DNA of 64,000 nt, from positions 608,001-672,000 of the forward strand of contig CAXXYH010000003.1 in assembly GCA_963677925.2 (NCBI GenBank). Reading direction: 5' to 3'. Both the position numbers and the translations under genes were made by a program. The stretch is from Spirochaetia bacterium. Lineage in GTDB: Bacteria > Spirochaetota > Spirochaetia > UBA9216. Each line of letters opens with the position of its first letter. The stretch's first letter is position 1. The notes beneath the pieces were generated by a model. That model made no database searches. It was not told the DNA's origin and saw only the letters and a program-made list of their open reading frames with translations. Positions 52,494-61,809 of the stretch are shown here, in pieces.

Positions 52494-54254
52494 TTACTGA
52501 TGAGCAGTACTGATACCTATTCCTGTAGCAAGATATATCTGCTGCTGCCGAACATCCACCGCTCTTATTACATTGGAGTTAAGGCCGTCCGAAGTAGTGA
52601 AATTCTCCCAGGAAACACCGCCGTCCTCTGACTTGCTAAGACCATATCCGTTCGTTCCGACCATAACACTATCTTCATCTACATACATCGAAAGACAGTA
52701 ATTTCCGCACATTCCGTCAAGCGTCGATATATGTGTCCAGGTATTGCCTCTGTCGGTAGACTTATTGAGCTGACTTGTAGTTGCTGTCCATATTGCATCG
52801 GTATCTGCAAAAACTGCACGGCATGAATTACTGCTCAGACCGTCAGAAGTATTTATATTTGTCCAGGTACTGCCATTATCTTCTGAATACGAAATACCTC
52901 CGCCGGTTGCAGCCCATACGGTTGAATCATCTTCTATATAAATATCATAGATATAATTACTTCCCAGGCCATCTACAGTGTTATAAGTTTTCCAGGTATT
53001 ACCGTCATCATCAGTTTTACTGAGACCGCCGCCGTTTGTACCAGCCCATACATTACCGGAAGCAGAATCAAAAGCTATTGAATAGATATAATTATTGCCC
53101 AGTCCCGAGGCTGTTGTATAAGTCGTCCAGGTGCTGCCGTTATCCATACTCTTTGATAAGCCGTTATTTGTACCTGCCCAGATTGCTGAACCCGATTTAC
53201 CAAGTGTCCTTATGTAATTTGATGGCAGGCCGTTTGAATTACTGAATCTTATCCAGCTTTGACCTCCATCATTGCTGAAATTCAGACCGCTTCCCCAGGT
53301 GGCAGCCCACAGTTCATCTTCATCGGTAAAAACATCATATATGCTGTTGCTGCTTAATCCTTCAGCCGTTGTGATTGAATTCCATAGAATACTCAAAGAT
53401 GCAGTGTCACTGACAGAAGCATCAAGTACCACAGTAGTAGTGTTCAGGCCAACCGAAGCCTCATCAGGAACTTTGCAGACTATCACCTTATTTGTCCAGG
53501 TGTAATAAGTTTCGACGTCAACTCCGCCTATCTGCAGAACTCCCGGGGCATCACTGAAACCGGTCCCAATAACAGACAGAACTTCACCAGCATGTGCAAC
53601 TGACGGCTGAATTGAATCTATGGAAGGATTGATAGAAAAATCAAGGCTGCCGGTAATATTATCATCAACATTTACATAAATCCCGCCGCTTTGCGCATCA
53701 TCAGGAACCACTGCAATTATTGTACTGCTGCTCCAAAGCCGGTATTCTTCTGCAGGATAATCTCCGAAATACACCTGACTGTCTTCCTGCGATGTTCCGA
53801 ACAAGTTTCCGGAAATGGTAACAAGCTCTCCTGCTTCCGCATTAGTCGGAAATACAGCAAGCAGAGAAAGCTCTACAGCATCTGAACTGCTCACTGAGAG
53901 GGTTTTAACATTGCTGCCGACTCCGTCAATCTCAACGCTTACATCAACGGCACTTGAGAAATCAGGGATTGTAACAACAATGGTACTGTCGCTCCAAAGA
54001 GAATATGTATCTGCCGCTGTCGTACCGAACAAAACCCTGTTTGTGCCCTGCTCATCACCGAAACCTGAACCTGTCAGAGTTAAAGAATCACCGGCTGTTG
54101 CCGCTTCAGGAAGCAGCTCATTCAAAGTAGTTGCAGACGGCTCAGCAACTTCATCGCTGCAGGAATAGAAACCGATCAATACCGGCATAACCATCAGAAT
54201 GACTGAAATAATCCTTGTAATGTTTAACTTATTCTTTTTAATAATCCTTTTCAC
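52494..54254 (-). CDS. Lipoprotein with 3 IPT/TIG domains and a BNR/regulator-propeller domain
   Basis: GTG start 54254; FYSC; three P......G....I.G..F...W....I...P units; repeated GLxSNxI...WAxTxxGLSxSxDxGxTW. Confidence 0.85.
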   Translation of the reverse strand: MKRIIKKNKLNITRIISVILMVMPVLIGFYSCSDEVAEPSATTLNELLPEAATAGDSLTLTGSGFGDEQGTNRVLFGTTAADTYSLWSDSTIVVTIPDFSSAVDVSVEIDGVGSNVKTLSVSSSDAVELSLLAVFPTNAEAGELVTISGNLFGTSQEDSQVYFGDYPAEEYRLWSSSTIIAVVPDDAQSGGIYVNVDDNITGSLDFSINPSIDSIQPSVAHAGEVLSVIGTGFSDAPGVLQIGGVDVETYYTWTNKVIVCKVPDEASVGLNTTTVVLDASVSDTASLSILWNSITTAEGLSSNSIYDVFTDEDELWAATWGSGLNFSNDGGQSWIRFSNSNGLPSNYIRTLGKSGSAIWAGTNNGLSKSMDNGSTWTTYTTASGLGNNYIYSIAFDSASGNVWAGTNGGGLSKTDDDGNTWKTYNTVDGLGSNYIYDIYIEDDSTVWAATGGGISYSEDNGSTWTNINTSDGLSSNSCRAVFADTDAIWTATTSQLNKSTDRGNTWTHISTLDGMCGNYCLSMYVDEDSVMVGTNGYGLSKSEDGGVSWENFTTSDGLNSNVIRAVDVRQQQIYLATGIGISTAHQ

Positions 54255-54403
54255 TTTTGTCCTAACCTTCTTTTTACTATAAAAACACAGAAATAAAGCA
54301 CAATTAGACATCCCGGGTGCTCAAACTATGCAGATTTCGGGGTTTTAATGTTTGTCGGTTAGTTGGCGCTTAATCTTCAATTTTTGGGAAGAGAGGGAAA
54401 CCA

Positions 54404-57253
54404 TTACTCGGCGGGGCCGCCGTCGGTTATTGTCCAGCCGTATGTATCTGTCAGTTCAGCCCTTGAGGAAACAGAAGCCGAACTGTATGTTGAATAACCG
54501 CCTGAAAAGGACACATCGGACTGCACAGTCTGAGCAGCCCAGCTTTGAAGAAGGGCATCGTAATTTTCAGTTGATAGAGTTACTCTTTCAAATATTTTAC
54601 GCATATCAGTCACTCTTGAAACATCCCAGCCGCTCAGATCCTGATCAAATGCGTAAGCGTAGGCAAACATCAATTCCATATCTTCTACATAACTGGTATC
54701 CCAGCTGCTGAGATCCTGATTAAAAGAATATGCACTAGCGAACATAGCGCTCATATCCGAGACTCTTGAAGTATCCCAGGCTCCAAGTGGCTGGTTGAAT
54801 GCTTCCGCATACCAAAACATTTTGTTCATATCCCGGACTCTTGAAGTATCCCAGGCCCCAAGTGGCTGGTTGAATGCTTCTGCATTATAAAACATATAGT
54901 GCATATAAAGTACATTGGAAGTATTCCAGCTGCCTATAGGCTGGTTAAAGGCTTCAGCATCAGAAAACATCCAGCTCATATTATTAACTCTTGATGTATC
55001 CCAGCCGTCTAAATTACCGTTAAAGGCAATAGCACAATAAAACATATAACTCATATCAGTTATATTTGACGTATCCCAGCCATCAAGATCCTGGTTAAAG
55101 GATTTTGCCCTAGCGAAGATACTATTCATATCTTTCACATTAGAGGTATCCCAACCACCGACAGGCTGATTAAAATCATCGGCATCATAGAACATACGGT
55201 ACATATTAGTAACATTCGATGTATCCCAGCCGCCTATGGGCTGGTTAAAACGGTCTGCACCGTAAAACATACGGCACATGGTAATTATATTGGAAGTATC
55301 CCAGCTGCCTATAGGTCCGTTAAAAGATTCCGCTCCCTCAAAGACATAGCTCAAATCAGTAACTTTGGAGATATCCCAACTGTCGAGATCCTGATTAAAT
55401 CCTGCAGCATAATAAAATATATAGGTTAAATCAGTCACATTTGAAGTGTCCCAGTCTCCGATAGGCTGATTAAAAACATCAGCCCCGGTGAACATACAGC
55501 TCATATCAGTAACATTTGATGTATTCCATTCACCTATCTCAGCGTTGAAGGAATCAGCACCGCTGAACATTCCCGCCATATCGGTTACAGCGGAAGTGTC
55601 CCAGCTGCCTATAGGCTGATTAAAACTTTCAGCATCACCGAACATATGATTCATATCTGTTACAGCAGATGTATCCCAGGCGCTGATATCCTGGTTGAAG
55701 GATTCAGCCCGGTAAAACATATGGCTCATATTCGTAACATTTGAAGTTTCCCAATCTCCCATTCCATAAACTGTTGTAAGTGAAAGATTATTCTCAAAAG
55801 CCCTGTAAAAACTTTGAACGGCGCCGGTATCAGGTGCATCCTTTGCTGATATAACGAGATTCTCTGCACCTGTGAACTGTCCCATTGTTTCGCCGAAAGC
55901 AAGAGGCCCCCAGGAGCTGATCAACGTTATTTTTTCTGCATCATTAAATCCAGTTTCCGAGCCGTCCGGGTTGAAGGACCAGCCCGTGATTTCCCCTGTA
56001 ATTCTGACAGTATACATCCCGGCTGACGGATATGTATGAACAAGCTCTTCATCATCATAGGCTGTTATCACCGAACTGCTCCCGTCACCCCAGCTCACTG
56101 TAAAATCATAGCTGCCTCCTGAAACCAGCGGCAGACTTATCTGATCAGAGTCAGAGACTCCTTCATTGTCAGTCTGCCATGTACTTACAAAGGCATATTC
56201 AGATGTAAATGAAAGGCTGACAGGTTCTGATTCTCCGCAGCTGTTATAGGAAACAAGATTAAAAGTATAGTTATCACCCTCGTTATAAACCGAATAACCC
56301 AAATCAGCCGATGTAATGGAAGTAATACCTGCCGCGGTTGCAGCCTCCGGGACACCGTCTGCATCTCCTTCATAAATTCTGAACCCGGATTCCGTGGAGG
56401 AGGAGTCTGTCCATAGAAGGGAAAAGCTGAGATCCTCGTTCTGCATTACGGAGAACCCGCTTGGTGCGGCGGGGGGCTGAAACAAATCCCCGGATTCAAG
56501 AACCAGCACAGAACTGCTTGTCAGGTTATCATATATAAGAACTATCTCTGAAAGCGGAGGATATTCAACCGGAAGATCAGGCCCGCCGGGATCATAACCG
56601 AATACAACAGACAGAAAATACTGACCGCTTGATAGCGTTTTGTATATAGAGAGGATGCCAGCGGTACTAAAATCACTATTATAATCGGCTCCCTCTGAAA
56701 GCTGGTATTCATCACCTCCGCCAATCGGCCAGGGATCTATATACACAGAAACACTGTCCACATCTTCATCCGGAAAATTTATTTTATAATCAATTATTCC
56801 GCTGCCCGTACCGCTGACCGGATAGAGAACTGCCGTGAGGCTGTTGCTTCCGTTTTCTATTAGAACAGGATTTCCAGTATCCGGTATTCCAGTACAGATA
56901 ATCTCAGCATCAGCATTAACTCCGCTGATAATGATATCCCAGGTTCCGGCATAGATATCAGGTATTGTGGTTCCGTCAGTATAGGATGAAACGGTAAAAT
57001 CAGCCTGACCTCCCGAATGATTGGAGAAGCTGATGGAATAGGAATCAACCAGGCTCTTTAAGTCGGATGCGGGGGCAATGGTTCGTGAGCCTGCTGAATC
57101 TCCAAAATAGAAAACAAGACACCCCTGTCCCGACGGTTTTCCATTAAGAAGGTCATCGTTGTCGATTGGATTAAGGCAGCCGGCAATCAGCAAATTTATC
57201 AAAATGACAGAGAGACTTAAAAAAATAGCCCGATATTTATTCACGTTTTTCAT
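54404..57253 (-). CDS. DUF285/BspA-type surface lipoprotein with 16 x 25-aa repeats
   Basis: IAGC lipobox; FN3-like and PKD-like domains (WGDGS); 16 WDTSxVxxMxxMFxxAxxFNQxxx units. Confidence 0.9.
54761..54885. repeat. Near-identical 75-bp-period tandem unit within the DUF285 array
   Basis: 54761-54810 vs 54836-54885 differ at 2 of 50 nt. Confidence 0.85.
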
Positions 57254-57254
57254 A

Positions 57255-58403
57255 TCAATACTGCTCTACTTTAAAAATAAAACTGTCTGAATACGGCATT
57301 TCATCAATCACAACAATAAGAGTGAGCGTATTCTGCCCTCTTTCAAACCAGTCAGGGTCAGCTTCGGTATCCAGTGATATAGATGAACCGGTGCCGCGGC
57401 TTATTCCGTTTATCAGCCAGTTATATGAGGAAATGCTTATCCCCTCATCAGCCGAAACAGCAATAGTCTGCTCTGTTGTTCCACCATCTATCTGCAGAAC
57501 AAATGATGAGGGATCCATACTGAATGAAGGATATTCAGGATTGTTTATAACGATACTTCCGGACGGCAAACTCCACTGCGCATAGAGATCCACATTTTCC
57601 GAACCCATTGAAAACTGAATGCCTGCAGTATAGTTAGCCCCCGTGCCGTCGGATAGGATATTCCAGGATTTAAAATTCATGCCTGACAGTACAAGATCTC
57701 CGGTATTTCCTATAACCGTTACTTTCGCATTTTCAAGGTAATAATTGCTGTCTACAGGGACTGAACCTGATTCGGCATCAGCGGCATGATAGGTCACTGT
57801 ATAAACGGGATCAGAGGTCCAGGCAGCATACAGATCCACATCGGTCTTTTCAATTATAAACTGAGAACCGCAGGTATATCCTGTTCCCAAACCGCTCTCT
57901 TTGGTATTCCATCCTATAAAGGACCAGCCGCTGCGGACAAGGCCGCCGGTATTGCCTGAAACAGTTACGGTTTCTCCTTCCAGGTAGTTGCCGGAATCAA
58001 CCGGAACAGAGCCCGATTCCGCATCCTCTGCATGGTAGGTGACTGAATAAACAGGGTCAGCCGTCCACTGAGCATATAGCCAGACATTGCTCTCCGGCAT
58101 TACCAGGCAGTCGCCGGACTGATAGCTTTCGCCCTCACCGTTTGCGAGAGTATTCCACCCGGTAAATGAATATCCGTTTTTAGTTAAGCTACCGGTATTT
58201 CTGCTTACTGTCACAGTATCACCGGGATAGCAGGTTATTCCGGAAGGGACCGCACCGCCATCGGCGCCGTTCTTACTGTAAATAACCATACAGGAATCAA
58301 TCAATTCCTCTGAAGGATTATCATCACAGCCTACAAGAATGGAAGTGAACATAGCAGAGAGTAAAACAAGCGGTGTAATAAACCGATATACTGATTTTTT
58401 CAT
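57255..58403 (-). CDS. InlB B-repeat (Listeria-Bacteroides repeat) lipoprotein
   Basis: Start ATG 58403; LVGC; 3 x VTY......GSVP...GYxFxGWNT...LYAxW; C-terminal Ig-like domain. Confidence 0.88.
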
Positions 58404-58420
58404 ATAATTCTCTTTTTCCA

Positions 58421-60427
58421 TCAATAAGCCAGTCCTGAATCGGTTATTTTCCATCCATATGTTTCTATTAAAACCGCTCTTGCCCATTCAGCATCGGAAC
58501 GGAATTTAGAATATCCTCCGCTGAAATAACATCCGGTTTTAACCGGCTGAACAGCCCAGCTTTTTAGAAGAGCATCGTAGTTATCAGTGGAAAGTTTTGC
58601 ATTATCCAAAAATTTTTTAAATGAAGTGACCTGTGAAACATCCCAGTCAGCAATATTTTGATCGAAATCTGAACTATACAACATATAACGCATATCAGTC
58701 ACTTTAGATGTATCCCAGCCTCCAAGATCCTGATTAAATGAATCAGCCGCACAAAACATATAACCCATATCAGTTACCGATGATGTATCCCATTTACTGA
58801 TATCCTGATTGAAGACCGTGGCAGCATAGAAAAGCCCCCTCATGGAAGTAACCTTTGAGGTATTCCAGTTACTGATATCCTCATTGAATTTTCTTGCCAA
58901 GTAAAACATATCAGTCATATCGGTAACATTTGATGTATCCCACTCATTCATTCTGTGGATAGAGCTGAGCGCAAAATTAAAGTAAAAAGCATTATTAAAG
59001 CTGGTTACATCACTTGTATCGGGGACATCCTTAGCTGTGATATCAAGATTTCTTGCATGATAGAATTGCCCTTTTGTATCACCGAAAGCGAACGGCCCCC
59101 AGGAACTTATTTCAAGTATCTTTTCCGCATCACCAAAAGACGAATAGGAAGCTTCAGGACTGAAAGACCAGCCGGAAATCTCACCATATATTCTAAGTGT
59201 ATAGCAGCCTGCCTCCGTATATGTATGAGTAACATCAGTATCATCATAAGAGGTTATTTCGGAGGTGCTGCCGTCTCCCCAGTAGATTGAAAAATCATAG
59301 GTTCCATTGGAAACAAGAGGAAGAGTTATCTGATTGTCTTCAGAGACGCCCTCATTATCAGTCTGCCAGGTACTTACAAATGAATACCCGGAAGAAAATG
59401 TTAGCCCGGCCGGTTCAGATTCACCGAAACGGTTATATGACACAATATAAAATGTGTATGTATCGCCTTCACTGTATTCCGTGAAACCAAGTTCCGCCGA
59501 TGTTATAGTGGTTACCCCTGCTTCGACTTCCGCCTCGGGTACACCGTCAACAGAGCCTTCATAGATTCTGAACCCGTCTTCATCAGAGGATTCATCATCC
59601 CAGAAAAGAATAAAGCTTAAATCCGACTCCTGTGCCTCACTGAAATCTGAGGGAGGCTCAGGAGGCTGGGTTAAATCCTCTGCCGAAATTTCCAGGCTTG
59701 AACTGGATGTAAGGTTGTTGAAGATCTGTACTATTTCAACAAGAGGCGGATATTCAACTGGAAGATCAGGGGCTCCCGGATCATTACCAAGTGTAACAGT
59801 CAGACAGTATTGCCCGCTCTGAAGAGAACAGTTAACTGCAAGTTCGCCTTCAGCTGTAAAATCACTGTTGTAATCTACGCCCGCATCAAGTTCATAATCA
59901 TCACCGCCGCCGATCGGCCAGGGGTCAACTGTTATGGTCACACTGTCAACATCCTCTGGCGGAAAGCTGATTGTATAATCAAGGATTCCAAAGCCTGAAC
60001 CGGCTATTCTGTCGACAGTTATTGATAAAGAGTTGTCTCCTTCAGTTATAAGGACGGGATTTCCGGATTCCGGCAGCCCGGTGCAGATTATGTTTCCCTC
60101 ACCATCCAGACCGTTTAATGTAATATCCCAGCTGCCTGTATATATATCTATTATTTTACTGCCCTCAATATAGGAATCTACAGTAAAATCAGGCTGACCT
60201 TCCGAATGATTTGAAAAATAAACTGAGTATGAATCTACAAGACTTTTCAAATCAGATACCGGGGAAATTGTACGTGAATCTGAGGTTTCATCAAGGCTGA
60301 AGACCAGCATCCCCCGGGGCATGGTATTATCAATCGTATCTTCTAAAGGATTTATGCACCCTGCTATTATTATATCTGATGCAATAACAGCTATGATTAT
60401 CAGTATATTCTGTATTCTTTTTTTCAT
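58421..60427 (-). CDS. DUF285/BspA-type surface lipoprotein with 5 repeats (paralogue of 54404-57253)
   Basis: Start ATG 60427; IAGC; same domain order; 5 WDTS-type units. Confidence 0.9.
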   Translation of the reverse strand: MKKRIQNILIIIAVIASDIIIAGCINPLEDTIDNTMPRGMLVFSLDETSDSRTISPVSDLKSLVDSYSVYFSNHSEGQPDFTVDSYIEGSKIIDIYTGSWDITLNGLDGEGNIICTGLPESGNPVLITEGDNSLSITVDRIAGSGFGILDYTISFPPEDVDSVTITVDPWPIGGGDDYELDAGVDYNSDFTAEGELAVNCSLQSGQYCLTVTLGNDPGAPDLPVEYPPLVEIVQIFNNLTSSSSLEISAEDLTQPPEPPSDFSEAQESDLSFILFWDDESSDEDGFRIYEGSVDGVPEAEVEAGVTTITSAELGFTEYSEGDTYTFYIVSYNRFGESEPAGLTFSSGYSFVSTWQTDNEGVSEDNQITLPLVSNGTYDFSIYWGDGSTSEITSYDDTDVTHTYTEAGCYTLRIYGEISGWSFSPEASYSSFGDAEKILEISSWGPFAFGDTKGQFYHARNLDITAKDVPDTSDVTSFNNAFYFNFALSSIHRMNEWDTSNVTDMTDMFYLARKFNEDISNWNTSKVTSMRGLFYAATVFNQDISKWDTSSVTDMGYMFCAADSFNQDLGGWDTSKVTDMRYMLYSSDFDQNIADWDVSQVTSFKKFLDNAKLSTDNYDALLKSWAVQPVKTGCYFSGGYSKFRSDAEWARAVLIETYGWKITDSGLAY

Positions 60428-60428
60428 A

Positions 60429-61562
60429 TCAGTACTGTTCCACAACAAAAATAAAGCTCTCGGAATACGGCGTTTCTTCAATTACAACTACAAGAGTCAG
60501 AGTATTTGGACCGGTAACAAACCAGTCAGGATTTGTCTCAGTATTCAGGGTCAGGGAAGAACCTGTTCCCCGCGATGTTCCGTTTATTAACCAGCTGCAG
60601 GAAGTGATATTGATTCCATCCCCGGCCGAGACAAAAATAGTCTGCTCCACAGTGCCTCCGCCTGTCTGCAGGGTAAGAGTTGAAGGACTTAAGCTGAATT
60701 GGGGATACTCAGGATTAACTATTACAATACTTCCTGAAGGAAAGCTCCATTGAGCATACAGATCAAGATCAACACAACCCATTGTGAGCTGGTCACCTGC
60801 ATTATAGGCAGTTCCCGAACCGTCATATTCAGTATTCCATCCGGTAAAAGTTCCTCCGGATATTGCAAGACCGCCTGTATTTCCCAGGACTGTTACTGTC
60901 ATATTTTCAAGATAATTATTGCTGTCAGAGGGAACAGAACCTGTGTCAGCGCTATCATCATGATAAGTTACAGTATAGGCAGGCTCCAAAGTCCAGACGG
61001 CAAAGAGTGCGACATCTGCCGTACCCATTAAAAACTCTGAACCTGATACATATTCCGTATCGGGGTCCTCTTCATCCGTGTTCCAGCCGATAAAAGTCCA
61101 GCCGTTTCGCGTAAGTCCTCCGGTATTGCCTAGAACAATCACCTTTTCATCTTCGAGATAAGAGTCTGAATCAACAGGGACAGAGCCGGATTCAGCAGTT
61201 TCCGCAGAGTATGTGACAGAGTATACCGGATAAGCATCCCACATTGCATAAAGACTGACACTGCTTTCCGGCATAAGTATGGTATCGCCCGGCTGATAGT
61301 CTTCGCCTTCTCCGCTTGAGAGTGTATTCCAGCCTATAAAAGAATTTCCTCTTCGGGAAAGAGTTCCTGTATTTTCACTTACAACAACAGAATCACCCGC
61401 ATAGAAGATTTCAGCGTCCGGAATACTTCCGGAATCAGCCCCGTTTGCAAAATATAAGAATTGATAGCCCGGCAGACTCTCAGTGCATCCTGACAGCAGG
61501 TAAAAAACAGACAGTGCTAATATGCCCCTCAGAAAAGACTGACGTGATAAGTAACGATGCAT
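60429..61562 (-). CDS. InlB B-repeat lipoprotein (paralogue of 57255-58403)
   Basis: LSGC; 3 B-repeats; same C-terminal domain ending FxVEQY. Confidence 0.88.
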   Translation of the reverse strand: MHRYLSRQSFLRGILALSVFYLLSGCTESLPGYQFLYFANGADSGSIPDAEIFYAGDSVVVSENTGTLSRRGNSFIGWNTLSSGEGEDYQPGDTILMPESSVSLYAMWDAYPVYSVTYSAETAESGSVPVDSDSYLEDEKVIVLGNTGGLTRNGWTFIGWNTDEEDPDTEYVSGSEFLMGTADVALFAVWTLEPAYTVTYHDDSADTGSVPSDSNNYLENMTVTVLGNTGGLAISGGTFTGWNTEYDGSGTAYNAGDQLTMGCVDLDLYAQWSFPSGSIVIVNPEYPQFSLSPSTLTLQTGGGTVEQTIFVSAGDGINITSCSWLINGTSRGTGSSLTLNTETNPDWFVTGPNTLTLVVVIEETPYSESFIFVVEQY

Positions 61563-61738: not shown

Positions 61739-61809
61739 GCGGCTGTCGTATAATGGTAATACTCCAGCTTCCCAAGCTGGCCACGGGGGTTCGATTCCCC
61801 TCAGCCGCT
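61739..61809 (+). tRNA. tRNA-Gly (CCC)
   Basis: Acceptor GCGGCTG/CAGCCGC, anticodon arm CCAGC-TTCCCAA-GCTGG, T-loop GTTCGATTC; CCA not encoded. Confidence 0.96.

Follow-up and report, generated by a model that had tools for sequence, protein, structure and literature searches.

The gene block at positions 54404-61562 of a contig from a Spirochaetia bacterium (GTDB UBA9216; GCA_963677925.2, contig CAXXYH010000003.1, 608,001-672,000) is, judging from its genes and their relatives, a genuine two-lipoprotein connector module, conserved and so far without a description, which is present here as a tandem duplicate with PARCEL adhesin-type repeats. All positions below refer to this stretch of 64,000 nucleotides, which we call the window. 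The block holds four minus-strand open reading frames (ORFs) in the transcription order A1-B1-A2-B2. Two domains are central to it: the connector, which forms the C-terminus of the A proteins, and the receiver, which makes up the N-terminal region in mature B proteins. That A and B are a functional pair is supported, because they are adjacent in 20 units even though their other domains have been swapped and because a model of the connector-receiver complex passes its controls. The display of large adhesin-like surface proteins by spirochaetes is poorly understood, and the present analysis defines an unannotated N-terminal lipoprotein module, the receiver, with a rarer partner domain, the connector, encoded just upstream of the receiver gene. 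We found no described equivalent in the literature on type V pili or the FimA superfamily in Spirochaetes, on donor strands in spirochete lipoproteins or on DUF285 in Treponema.

The following model is what we infer about whether A and B bind, which slot the strand takes, whether the proteins are at the surface and whether cleavage occurs. Protein A would be a lipid-anchored stalk of immunoglobulin-like (Ig-like) repeats, here three InlB-type B-repeats, tipped by a beta-sandwich connector of ~100 residues. Protein B would be a lipoprotein in which a pilin-like double-sandwich receiver (~235 mature residues) is followed by FN3-like and PKD-like domains and then by a variable cargo, here PARCEL/DUF285 adhesin-type repeats. 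Binding of the connector to the receiver would give a single surface complex of two lipoproteins. In this complex, the connector strand SGSIVINN would take the place of the first strand of B, between receiver strands 71-76 and 110-120, while the conserved PYS loop would rest on the second sandwich of the receiver; the first strand of B would be displaced or cut off to free the slot. If the two proteins do bind, the module would be a portable 'plug and socket' by which many stalks carry many cargos (PARCEL repeats, beta-helices, beta-propellers). We consider it probable that connector and receiver bind, taking the three binding readings discussed below together; that they bind by strand complementation in the first-strand slot of B comes close to an even call without reaching it.

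The A-B gene pair in the window and across Spirochaetia

The four genes of the block are as follows.

60429..61562, minus strand: A1, a lipoprotein (Cys26) with three Flg_new repeats and a C-terminal connector (ORF of 377 residues; Pfam)
58421..60427, minus strand: B1, a lipoprotein (Cys24) with receiver, FN3-like, PKD-like and PARCEL/DUF285 regions (668 residues counted from the ATG)
57255..58421 (MEKENY start, 388 residues) or 57255..58406 (MKKS start, 383 residues), minus strand: A2, a lipoprotein with three B-repeats and a connector
54404..57253, minus strand: B2, a lipoprotein (Cys26) with receiver, FN3-like domain (263-345), PKD-like domain (378-421) and 12 PARCEL repeats (949 residues)

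By its sequences, the block is a true tandem duplication and not a chance arrangement, because the identity is 58% between A1 and A2 (384 columns) and 56% between B1 and B2 (645 columns). A lipobox is found in all four proteins (LSGC in A1, IAGC in B1, LVGC in A2 and IAGC in B2). At the A-to-B junction, both copies read GAA/GAG CAG TAC/TAT TGA T ATG, with the start of B one nucleotide past the stop of A, whereas B1 and A2 overlap in TGATG if A2 begins at MEKENY and are otherwise 17 nucleotides apart. An earlier reading of this DNA, hereafter the original prediction, had described a two-lipoprotein unit occurring twice with the same TGA-T-ATG junction, and both statements are confirmed at these coordinates. 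The sequence features on which it was built are also present: the lipoboxes, the motifs SRTIAP and SRTISP with Arg codons at 57083-57085 and 60272-60274, and the PYSxSFIFxVEQY ends of both A proteins.

The pairing was surveyed in a class sample of 401 Spirochaetia genomes, coded G000 upward. Connector matches at E<=1e-8 were found at ten loci; a receiver gene lies directly downstream at nine of them, and the tenth ends at a contig end. Among the nine paired loci, one pair is decayed (G234; in G234:C5 both module genes are in pieces) and one B gene is frameshifted inside the receiver (G023). Weaker connector matches added further pairs in G046, as a third unit in G365, as two tandem units in G018, in G054 and in G185:C16, which brings the total to 20 A-B units in 15 genomes and 12 coded families, an independent sample included. 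Other weak connector matches (G128, G359, G057, G175, G185:C102, G146, G360, G269 and G365:C1) stand outside this count. The spacing of the A-B junction ranges from a 1-nucleotide overlap to ~10 nucleotides, and a tandem A-B-A'-B' duplicate occurs once more, at G018:C3:383000-394000.

Apart from connector and receiver, the composition of the units varies. The stalks of A consist of Flg_new, Big_13, Big_2 or Y_Y_Y, and the cargos of B are PARCEL repeats, Chlam_PMP or DUF1565 beta-helices, GLUG or LVIVD. Among 22 flanking ORFs scanned, there was no third gene in common and no conserved protease. In a sister species, one A gene (791 residues, ~nine B-repeats, the same connector) ends directly before one B gene; since this single pair sits among neighbours other than those of the window block, the module has no conserved chromosomal place.

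The relation is not symmetrical. A receiver is present in 138 of the 401 sampled genomes (profile search, E<=1e-8), and the reverse was tested on the 40 highest-scoring receiver places that lay beyond the training set. A gene ending in a connector lies just upstream in four of them (G185:C20, G379, G373 and G046), a weak connector-like domain is part of the same ORF in three, and neither is found in the remaining 33, one of which is at a contig end. Partnered receivers cluster in a quick tree of 68 receiver modules, with 7 changes of state against a shuffled mean of 17.4 and none of 500 shuffles as low, a figure that kinship inflates. The asymmetry fits the view of A as an accessory to a common module of lipoproteins, onto which it docks, because the connector nearly always comes with a receiver gene downstream, whereas the receiver has a connector upstream only sometimes.

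The constant order of the two genes also bears on a different role for A, that of a helper, in which A would serve B as a dedicated chaperone or as a partner in export, holding the receiver in transit and staying outside the final structure. A is always upstream and translationally coupled, and the part of B that it is predicted to bind is the part that emerges first. A structural stalk is a better fit than a chaperone for the long, variable Ig-like arrays of A and for the lipid anchor that it carries, and we regard the helper role as clearly improbable.

Receiver genes were also observed in other arrangements. Three successive large lipoprotein ORFs (836, 1066 and 1553 residues) in G003:C115 carry tandem receivers without a connector gene. 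Small lipoproteins of ~330-360 residues (L054 G199, L051 G037, L092 G267) combine a strong receiver match with a weak, partial connector-like match in one chain, and they often stand in tandem with another receiver gene. Such proteins are candidates for subunits that act as both acceptor and donor, with a connector match too weak to say.

The receiver module and the connector domain

The positions of the two domains, and of the elements within them that matter below, are as follows.

59663..60358, minus strand: B1 receiver, approximately residues 24-255; beta1 is GMLVFSL, followed by SDSRTISP with the Arg52 codon at 60272-60274
56468..57178, minus strand: B2 receiver, residues 26-262, two beta-sandwiches (AlphaFold model)
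57098..57127, minus strand: B2 beta1 strand, module residues 18-27 (DSSP on the model; deleted for the complex model)
57083..57085, minus strand: B2 Arg57 codon in SRTIAP, module residue 32
54539..55816 (approximate limits), minus strand: B2 PARCEL/DUF285 repeats (Pfam DUF285, TIGR02167)
60432..60743, minus strand: A1 connector, the last 104 residues, ending PYSESFIFVVEQY; 69% identical to the A2 connector
57258..57569, minus strand: A2 connector, 104 residues, eight-strand beta-sandwich (predicted model)
57543..57563, minus strand: A2 connector first strand SGSIVIN, residues 3-9, the predicted strand-pairing element (complex model)
57261..57281, minus strand: A2 connector last strand FIFKVEQ, residues 97-103, the donor of the original prediction and a strand of A's own fold

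Neither Pfam nor NCBIfam has a family for the receiver, which covers approximately 235 residues from the start of mature B, and the B2 module gives no Pfam match at E<=1. None of the fimbrillin Pfam families was found in B1 or B2 at E<=0.01, nor in 12 receiver modules at E<=1; DUF4493 matches one of these 12 modules (3.5e-7), has no match in this genome and turned up in no paper. Against the sequences of solved structures, the receiver profile matched only a tenascin FN3 domain (E 0.0026). A search of genome contigs with a single receiver protein confirmed no relative, and an exhaustive search with the B2 receiver gave 76 cluster representatives, in which the module lies nearly always right behind the lipobox; the lipobox Cys is aligned in 69 of 73 receiver relatives. 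The rest of B is more familiar. Weak FN3 and PKD matches stand ahead of the DUF285/PARCEL repeats in B1 and B2; DUF285 (PF03382) is matched at 2.8e-54 in B1 and at 8.2e-175, in five stretches, in B2; and the tandem PARCEL repeats of ~26 residues (TIGR02167, NCBIfam) form three stretches in B1 and 12 in B2 (2.5e-82). A match to NF045896 in B1 and B2 is below the family cut-off.

A short pattern, C-x-N-P-[F/L], is frequent after the lipid Cys of receiver-type lipoproteins (57163-57178 in B2, 60343-60358 in B1). In the 73-row alignment, N occupies position +2 in 40 rows, P position +3 in 46 and F or L position +4 in 45. This pattern may serve to sort or tether lipoproteins in spirochaetes.

The AlphaFold model of the B2 receiver has a mean predicted local distance difference test (pLDDT) score of 92.5 and a predicted template-modelling (TM) score of 0.83, with its two sandwiches at module residues 18-120 and 126-226. 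The original prediction had proposed a comparison with Mfa/Fim pilins. Foldseek matches the receiver to several FimA-superfamily structures, Mfa2 among them, with probability 1.00, but the TM scores are only 0.29-0.41, and the first rank goes to BT_0210, a leucine-rich repeat (LRR) protein of Bacteroides (E 2.6e-8). Structural alignment with VIA against 48,161 chains, in which Z values under 8 are common by the tool's own note, places BT_0210 at Z 9.8 (189 residues aligned, root-mean-square deviation (rmsd) 17.7, identity 14%) and DUF4876, which covers the first sandwich only, at Z 9.0. Then follow the FimA-superfamily structures 3liu (8.0), 5cag (7.9), Mfa3 (6.8), Mfa4 (6.7), FimA1 (6.6) and Mfa2 (6.3), aligned over 164-202 residues with rmsd 5.7-8.0. 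The matches that span both sandwiches are mostly Bacteroidales lipoproteins of the pilin kind. Nevertheless, the Z values between receiver and pilins may reflect only a common arrangement.

The connector is preceded in A1 and A2 by repeats of PF09479 (Flg_new, InlB B-repeat), which score 70.6 and 80.1 bits, respectively, against a cut-off of 27 (E-value 1.2e-19 in A1) and form three stretches in each protein. The connector itself (~104 residues) belongs to no Pfam or NCBIfam family. A profile search of a 5.8-billion-protein collection gave a family of 14 proteins, in all 14 of which it occupies the very C-terminus and follows arrays of Flg_new, Big_2, FN3-like or other Ig-like domains. Foldseek gave no match for it in the PDB at E<=0.001, the best wide VIA alignment reaching Z 5.6, and a sequence search of solved structures gave none at E<=1; a language-model search for look-alikes suggested PKD-like domains, with a score of 0.91 and 165 features in common, which we take as a lead only. 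No relative was confirmed when the connector alignment was compared with metagenome contigs. Within this genome, tblastn finds the two window copies each of connector and receiver and one weak match overall. The most conserved connector residues are P92, Y93 and S94. Modelled alone, from four sequences, the connector is an eight-strand sandwich with pLDDT 76, and strand 97-103 is part of the fold.

The original prediction placed these proteins close to type V pili. Type V pilins are lipoproteins of two transthyretin-like sandwiches, which lose their first strand by a cut behind an Arg of the loop that follows it, the space then being filled by the C-terminal donor strand of the next subunit, and type V anchors are uncleaved pilins (PMC13655056, PMC5789003). 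By analogy, B would be cut after Arg57 or Arg52, the terminal strand of A (PYSxSFIFxVEQY) would fill the groove, and A would keep its lipid and be the anchor, with B as the tip. Both window copies do have a first strand, a loop and an Arg, the receiver is pilin-like in shape, and the partner-binding domains, at the distal end of A and the proximal end of B, follow a head-to-tail logic. There is also a homologue of Peptidase_C25 (gingipain family) in the genome, far from the window.

The Arg site is conserved across Bacteroidia type V pilins, whereas the Arg57 column in 73 receiver relatives holds R in 37, S in 14, Q in 10, A in 4 and K in 3. In the 19 receivers that are partnered by an A protein, the position is R in nine (in one of them offset by one position), N in three, K, Q and S in two each and A in one, so that R or K occurs in 11. 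The following T and P are kept in 67 and 69 of the 73 relatives, respectively. Because R is found in only 37 of 73 relatives and R/K in 11 of 19 partnered proteins, and because the motif is kept in partnerless members, the alignment tells us that an Arg-specific cut cannot belong to the general working of the receiver module; T-[IV]-x-P has the look of a structural element. A cut after Arg57 and Arg52 in this genome is possible. The Peptidase_C25 homologue (G000:C3:1841436-1842188) is a 422-residue ORF 1.2 Mb from the window, with E 6.3e-9 and 35.9 bits against a cut-off of 23.

Two further parts of the pilus analogy fare no better than the conserved Arg. The terminal strand of A, the supposed donor, is located inside A's own sandwich in the connector model. 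In the complex model described below, strand 97-103 contacts B through no more than residues 98 and 102, and connector residues 1-13 do the pairing instead. As an anchor of the type V kind, A would have a pilin fold; it consists of Flg_new repeats and a single sandwich of ~100 residues, has neither a receiver-type module nor a pilin fold, and FimA/Mfa Pfam matches are absent. Assembly in the type V manner is therefore, in our estimate, highly improbable. Genome-wide, RT[ILV]xP within 90 residues of the lipobox Cys occurs in B1, in B2 and in two further receiver lipoproteins of this genome (C4:894508-895503 with SRTVLP and C4:1731970-1733862 with SRTIIP), neither of which has an A-type gene upstream. 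The former, of 331 residues, has a third Ig-like domain at its end, with the terminal strand SVSHTFTVE.

The predicted complex and how A and B may join

For the complex model, the B2 receiver cut after the Arg (module residues 33-237, 72-row alignment) was combined with the A2 connector (19-row alignment). The interaction prediction scores from aligned errors (ipSAE) were 0.86, 0.87 and 0.87, compared with 0.00 for each of three controls. Among reference cases, 116 of 157 solved complexes attain the ipSAE mark, as do 2 of 215 mismatched pairs, a calibration that is only rough for custom alignments such as these. There are 137-139 contacts, on which the runs agree to at least 96%, and pLDDT of the partner, the connector with its 19 sequences, is 91-92. 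The model supports binding without showing it. The original prediction had proposed just such a model of the Arg-truncated B protein with the C-terminal domain of A; a confident interaction was indeed obtained, but the contact is not made through the last strand of A. Of its strand-exchange pair of anchor and adhesin, then, the pairing itself stands, in 20 units and with a complex score of 0.87 against 0.00, while the Arg site, the terminal-strand donor and the pilin-type anchor do not.

Connector residues 1-13, all of which are in the interface, contact receiver residues 107-120 and 68-77 as consecutive runs, and they also contact the alternate receiver residues 47, 49, 82 and 84. The pairs with the lowest error are A3-5 with B72 and B112 and A5-9 with B114-117, with indices that rise together. 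The P92-Y93-S94 loop contacts B186-190 and B206-214 of the second sandwich, and further lowest-error contacts join B212 to A92-94 and A85, and B186/188/214 to A85/92. Read from the contact list and not from coordinates, strand 1 of the connector would lie between strands four and seven of the first B sandwich, parallel to the seventh and facing the core side of the second and fifth; in a transthyretin-like sandwich, the first strand, here deleted, would have its slot at this position. Beta1 of B and the first strand of the connector are alike, with a score of 14.6 against 11.85 for shuffled strands (standard deviation (sd) 0.76, 200 shuffles). A mutual-information scan for the neighbours of beta1 in 138 sequences gave noise, in which strands 71-76 and 110-120 were slightly highest (0.006 and 0.005).

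Several points weigh against strand complementation in this slot, or against binding as such. The complex was modelled with the first strand of B deleted, so that the gap invited filling. The likeness between beta1 and connector strand 1 is not specific to the pairs (4514 of 20000 permutations), and the two may be alike simply as generic first strands of Ig-like domains. Conservation at the interface positions is no higher among 13 partnered receivers than among those without a partner (-0.096 vs -0.137, sd 0.143, with 76 of 200 samples as high). Receivers with the same first strand and xT[IV]xP but no partner are the majority (33 of 40 in the reverse test), and the strand-xT[IV]xP pattern is also seen in many other partnerless members of the family, such as the tandem genes of G003. 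The fold matches are all middling, level with those to single immunoglobulin and FN3 domains (shark VNAR, Z 7.5). Finally, both proteins have lipoboxes, and if B stays lipidated, the far C-terminus of A must reach back to the membrane-proximal module of B.

Some of the same contacts would suit a connector that docks rigidly, by way of the PYS loop and the second sandwich, on a receiver that is intact and still has its lipid, the first strand of B staying in place and the product being a heterodimer of lipid-anchored proteins. The lowest-error contacts include those of the second sandwich (B212, and B186/188/214 with A85 and A92-94), which are away from the beta1 slot; P92, Y93 and S94 are the most conserved residues of the connector; and the Arg is not conserved, nor is any protease gene conserved beside the module. 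However, the largest contact runs, A1-13 with B68-77 and B107-120, would clash with a retained first strand if that strand is seated there, and the distal end of A would have to fold back to the base of B. We regard rigid docking as unlikely, although of appreciable weight.

It could also be that the two proteins do not bind physically at all and are independent lipoproteins of one operon, their adjacency stemming from the habits of a tandemly amplifying family. Receiver genes are often in tandem (three in a row in G003, and several pairs), the lipoproteins of ~330-360 residues unite a receiver with a weak connector-like domain in a single chain, and the interface positions show no special conservation. 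On the other side are the strict A-then-B order and the coupled junctions, which are kept throughout 20 units despite the swapping of every other domain, the fact that in the window B never has a connector and A never has a receiver, and the complex score of 0.87 against 0.00 for the controls. We judge the absence of binding to be rather improbable.

Relation to known systems and neighbouring features

The system shares several features with the type V pili of Bacteroidia, in which FimA/Mfa1 form the stalks, FimB/Mfa2 the anchors and Mfa3-5 the tips. The precursors are lipoproteins, a module predicted to be a double beta-sandwich begins with a first strand followed by a loop (with an Arg here), the partner is predicted in the position of the first strand, and A would be a donor-only, anchor-like protein and B an acceptor-only, tip-like protein with an adhesin domain. 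There are also differences. No sequence family is matched here, the fold match is only middling (Z 6.3-8.0) and the Arg site lacks conservation. Instead of a C-terminal tail, a separate C-terminal domain is predicted to donate its first strand, which runs parallel to strand 110-120. Furthermore, A is without a pilin fold, no polymerising stalk subunit is encoded at this locus, and the phylum is Spirochaetota. The A-B system is not a member of the type V family, because family membership, a conserved Arg, a C-terminal donor strand and a pilin-type anchor are all lacking; it may use a related principle with another donor element.

In its fullest form, this idea describes a chaperone-free strand-complementation system by which Spirochaetia would assemble surface structures from lipoproteins. 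In it, a donor-only stalk or anchor, A, plugs connector strand 1 into an acceptor-only adhesin, B, at the slot for the first strand of its pilin-like receiver, relatives with both domains could form longer fibres, and a principle like that of type V pili is at work beyond Bacteroidota, although the donor element differs and the Arg site is not fixed. We hold this fuller account to be somewhat doubtful. Were strand complementation true, the logic of type V pili would extend beyond Bacteroidota. In chaperone-usher pili, a strand from another chain likewise completes an Ig-like sandwich. In contrast to that donor-strand complementation, there is no chaperone or usher gene here, both partners are lipoproteins and the acceptor starts with a first strand of its own.

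The best receiver match, BT_0210 of Bacteroides thetaiotaomicron (PDB 4ecn), resembles B in its pair of Ig-like domains at the N-terminus, after which comes a repeat domain; it differs in the angle between the domains (rmsd 17.7), in sequence (14% identity) and in carrying an LRR cargo rather than PARCEL repeats. We know of no partner protein for it. Proteins with the Listeria-Bacteroides repeat (Flg_new) are like A in their repeats, of which there are three in A1 and A2 and ~nine in the A protein of the sister genome, but the connector lies outside that family and is elsewhere attached to Big_2, Big_13 or FN3-like stalks. The PARCEL/DUF285 surface lipoproteins of Mollicutes (the Mbov_0838 family; PMC2996958) share with B1 and B2 the same repeat and the lipoprotein nature, whereas the spirochaete B proteins add a receiver, an FN3-like and a PKD-like domain ahead of the repeats, as well as a partner gene.

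The block is flanked by a tRNA-Gly(CCC) gene at 61739-61809 on the plus strand, 177 nucleotides upstream of A1. On its other side, 92 nucleotides downstream of B2 and on the same (minus) strand, 52494-54311 encodes a protein of 605 residues with three IPT/TIG domains, propeller repeats of the BNR/Reg_prop type and a possible lipobox, FYSC; it may belong to the same transcription unit and be one more surface protein. Of the words sampled from 54404-61562, 45% are present in a public run labelled as a plastisphere metagenome.

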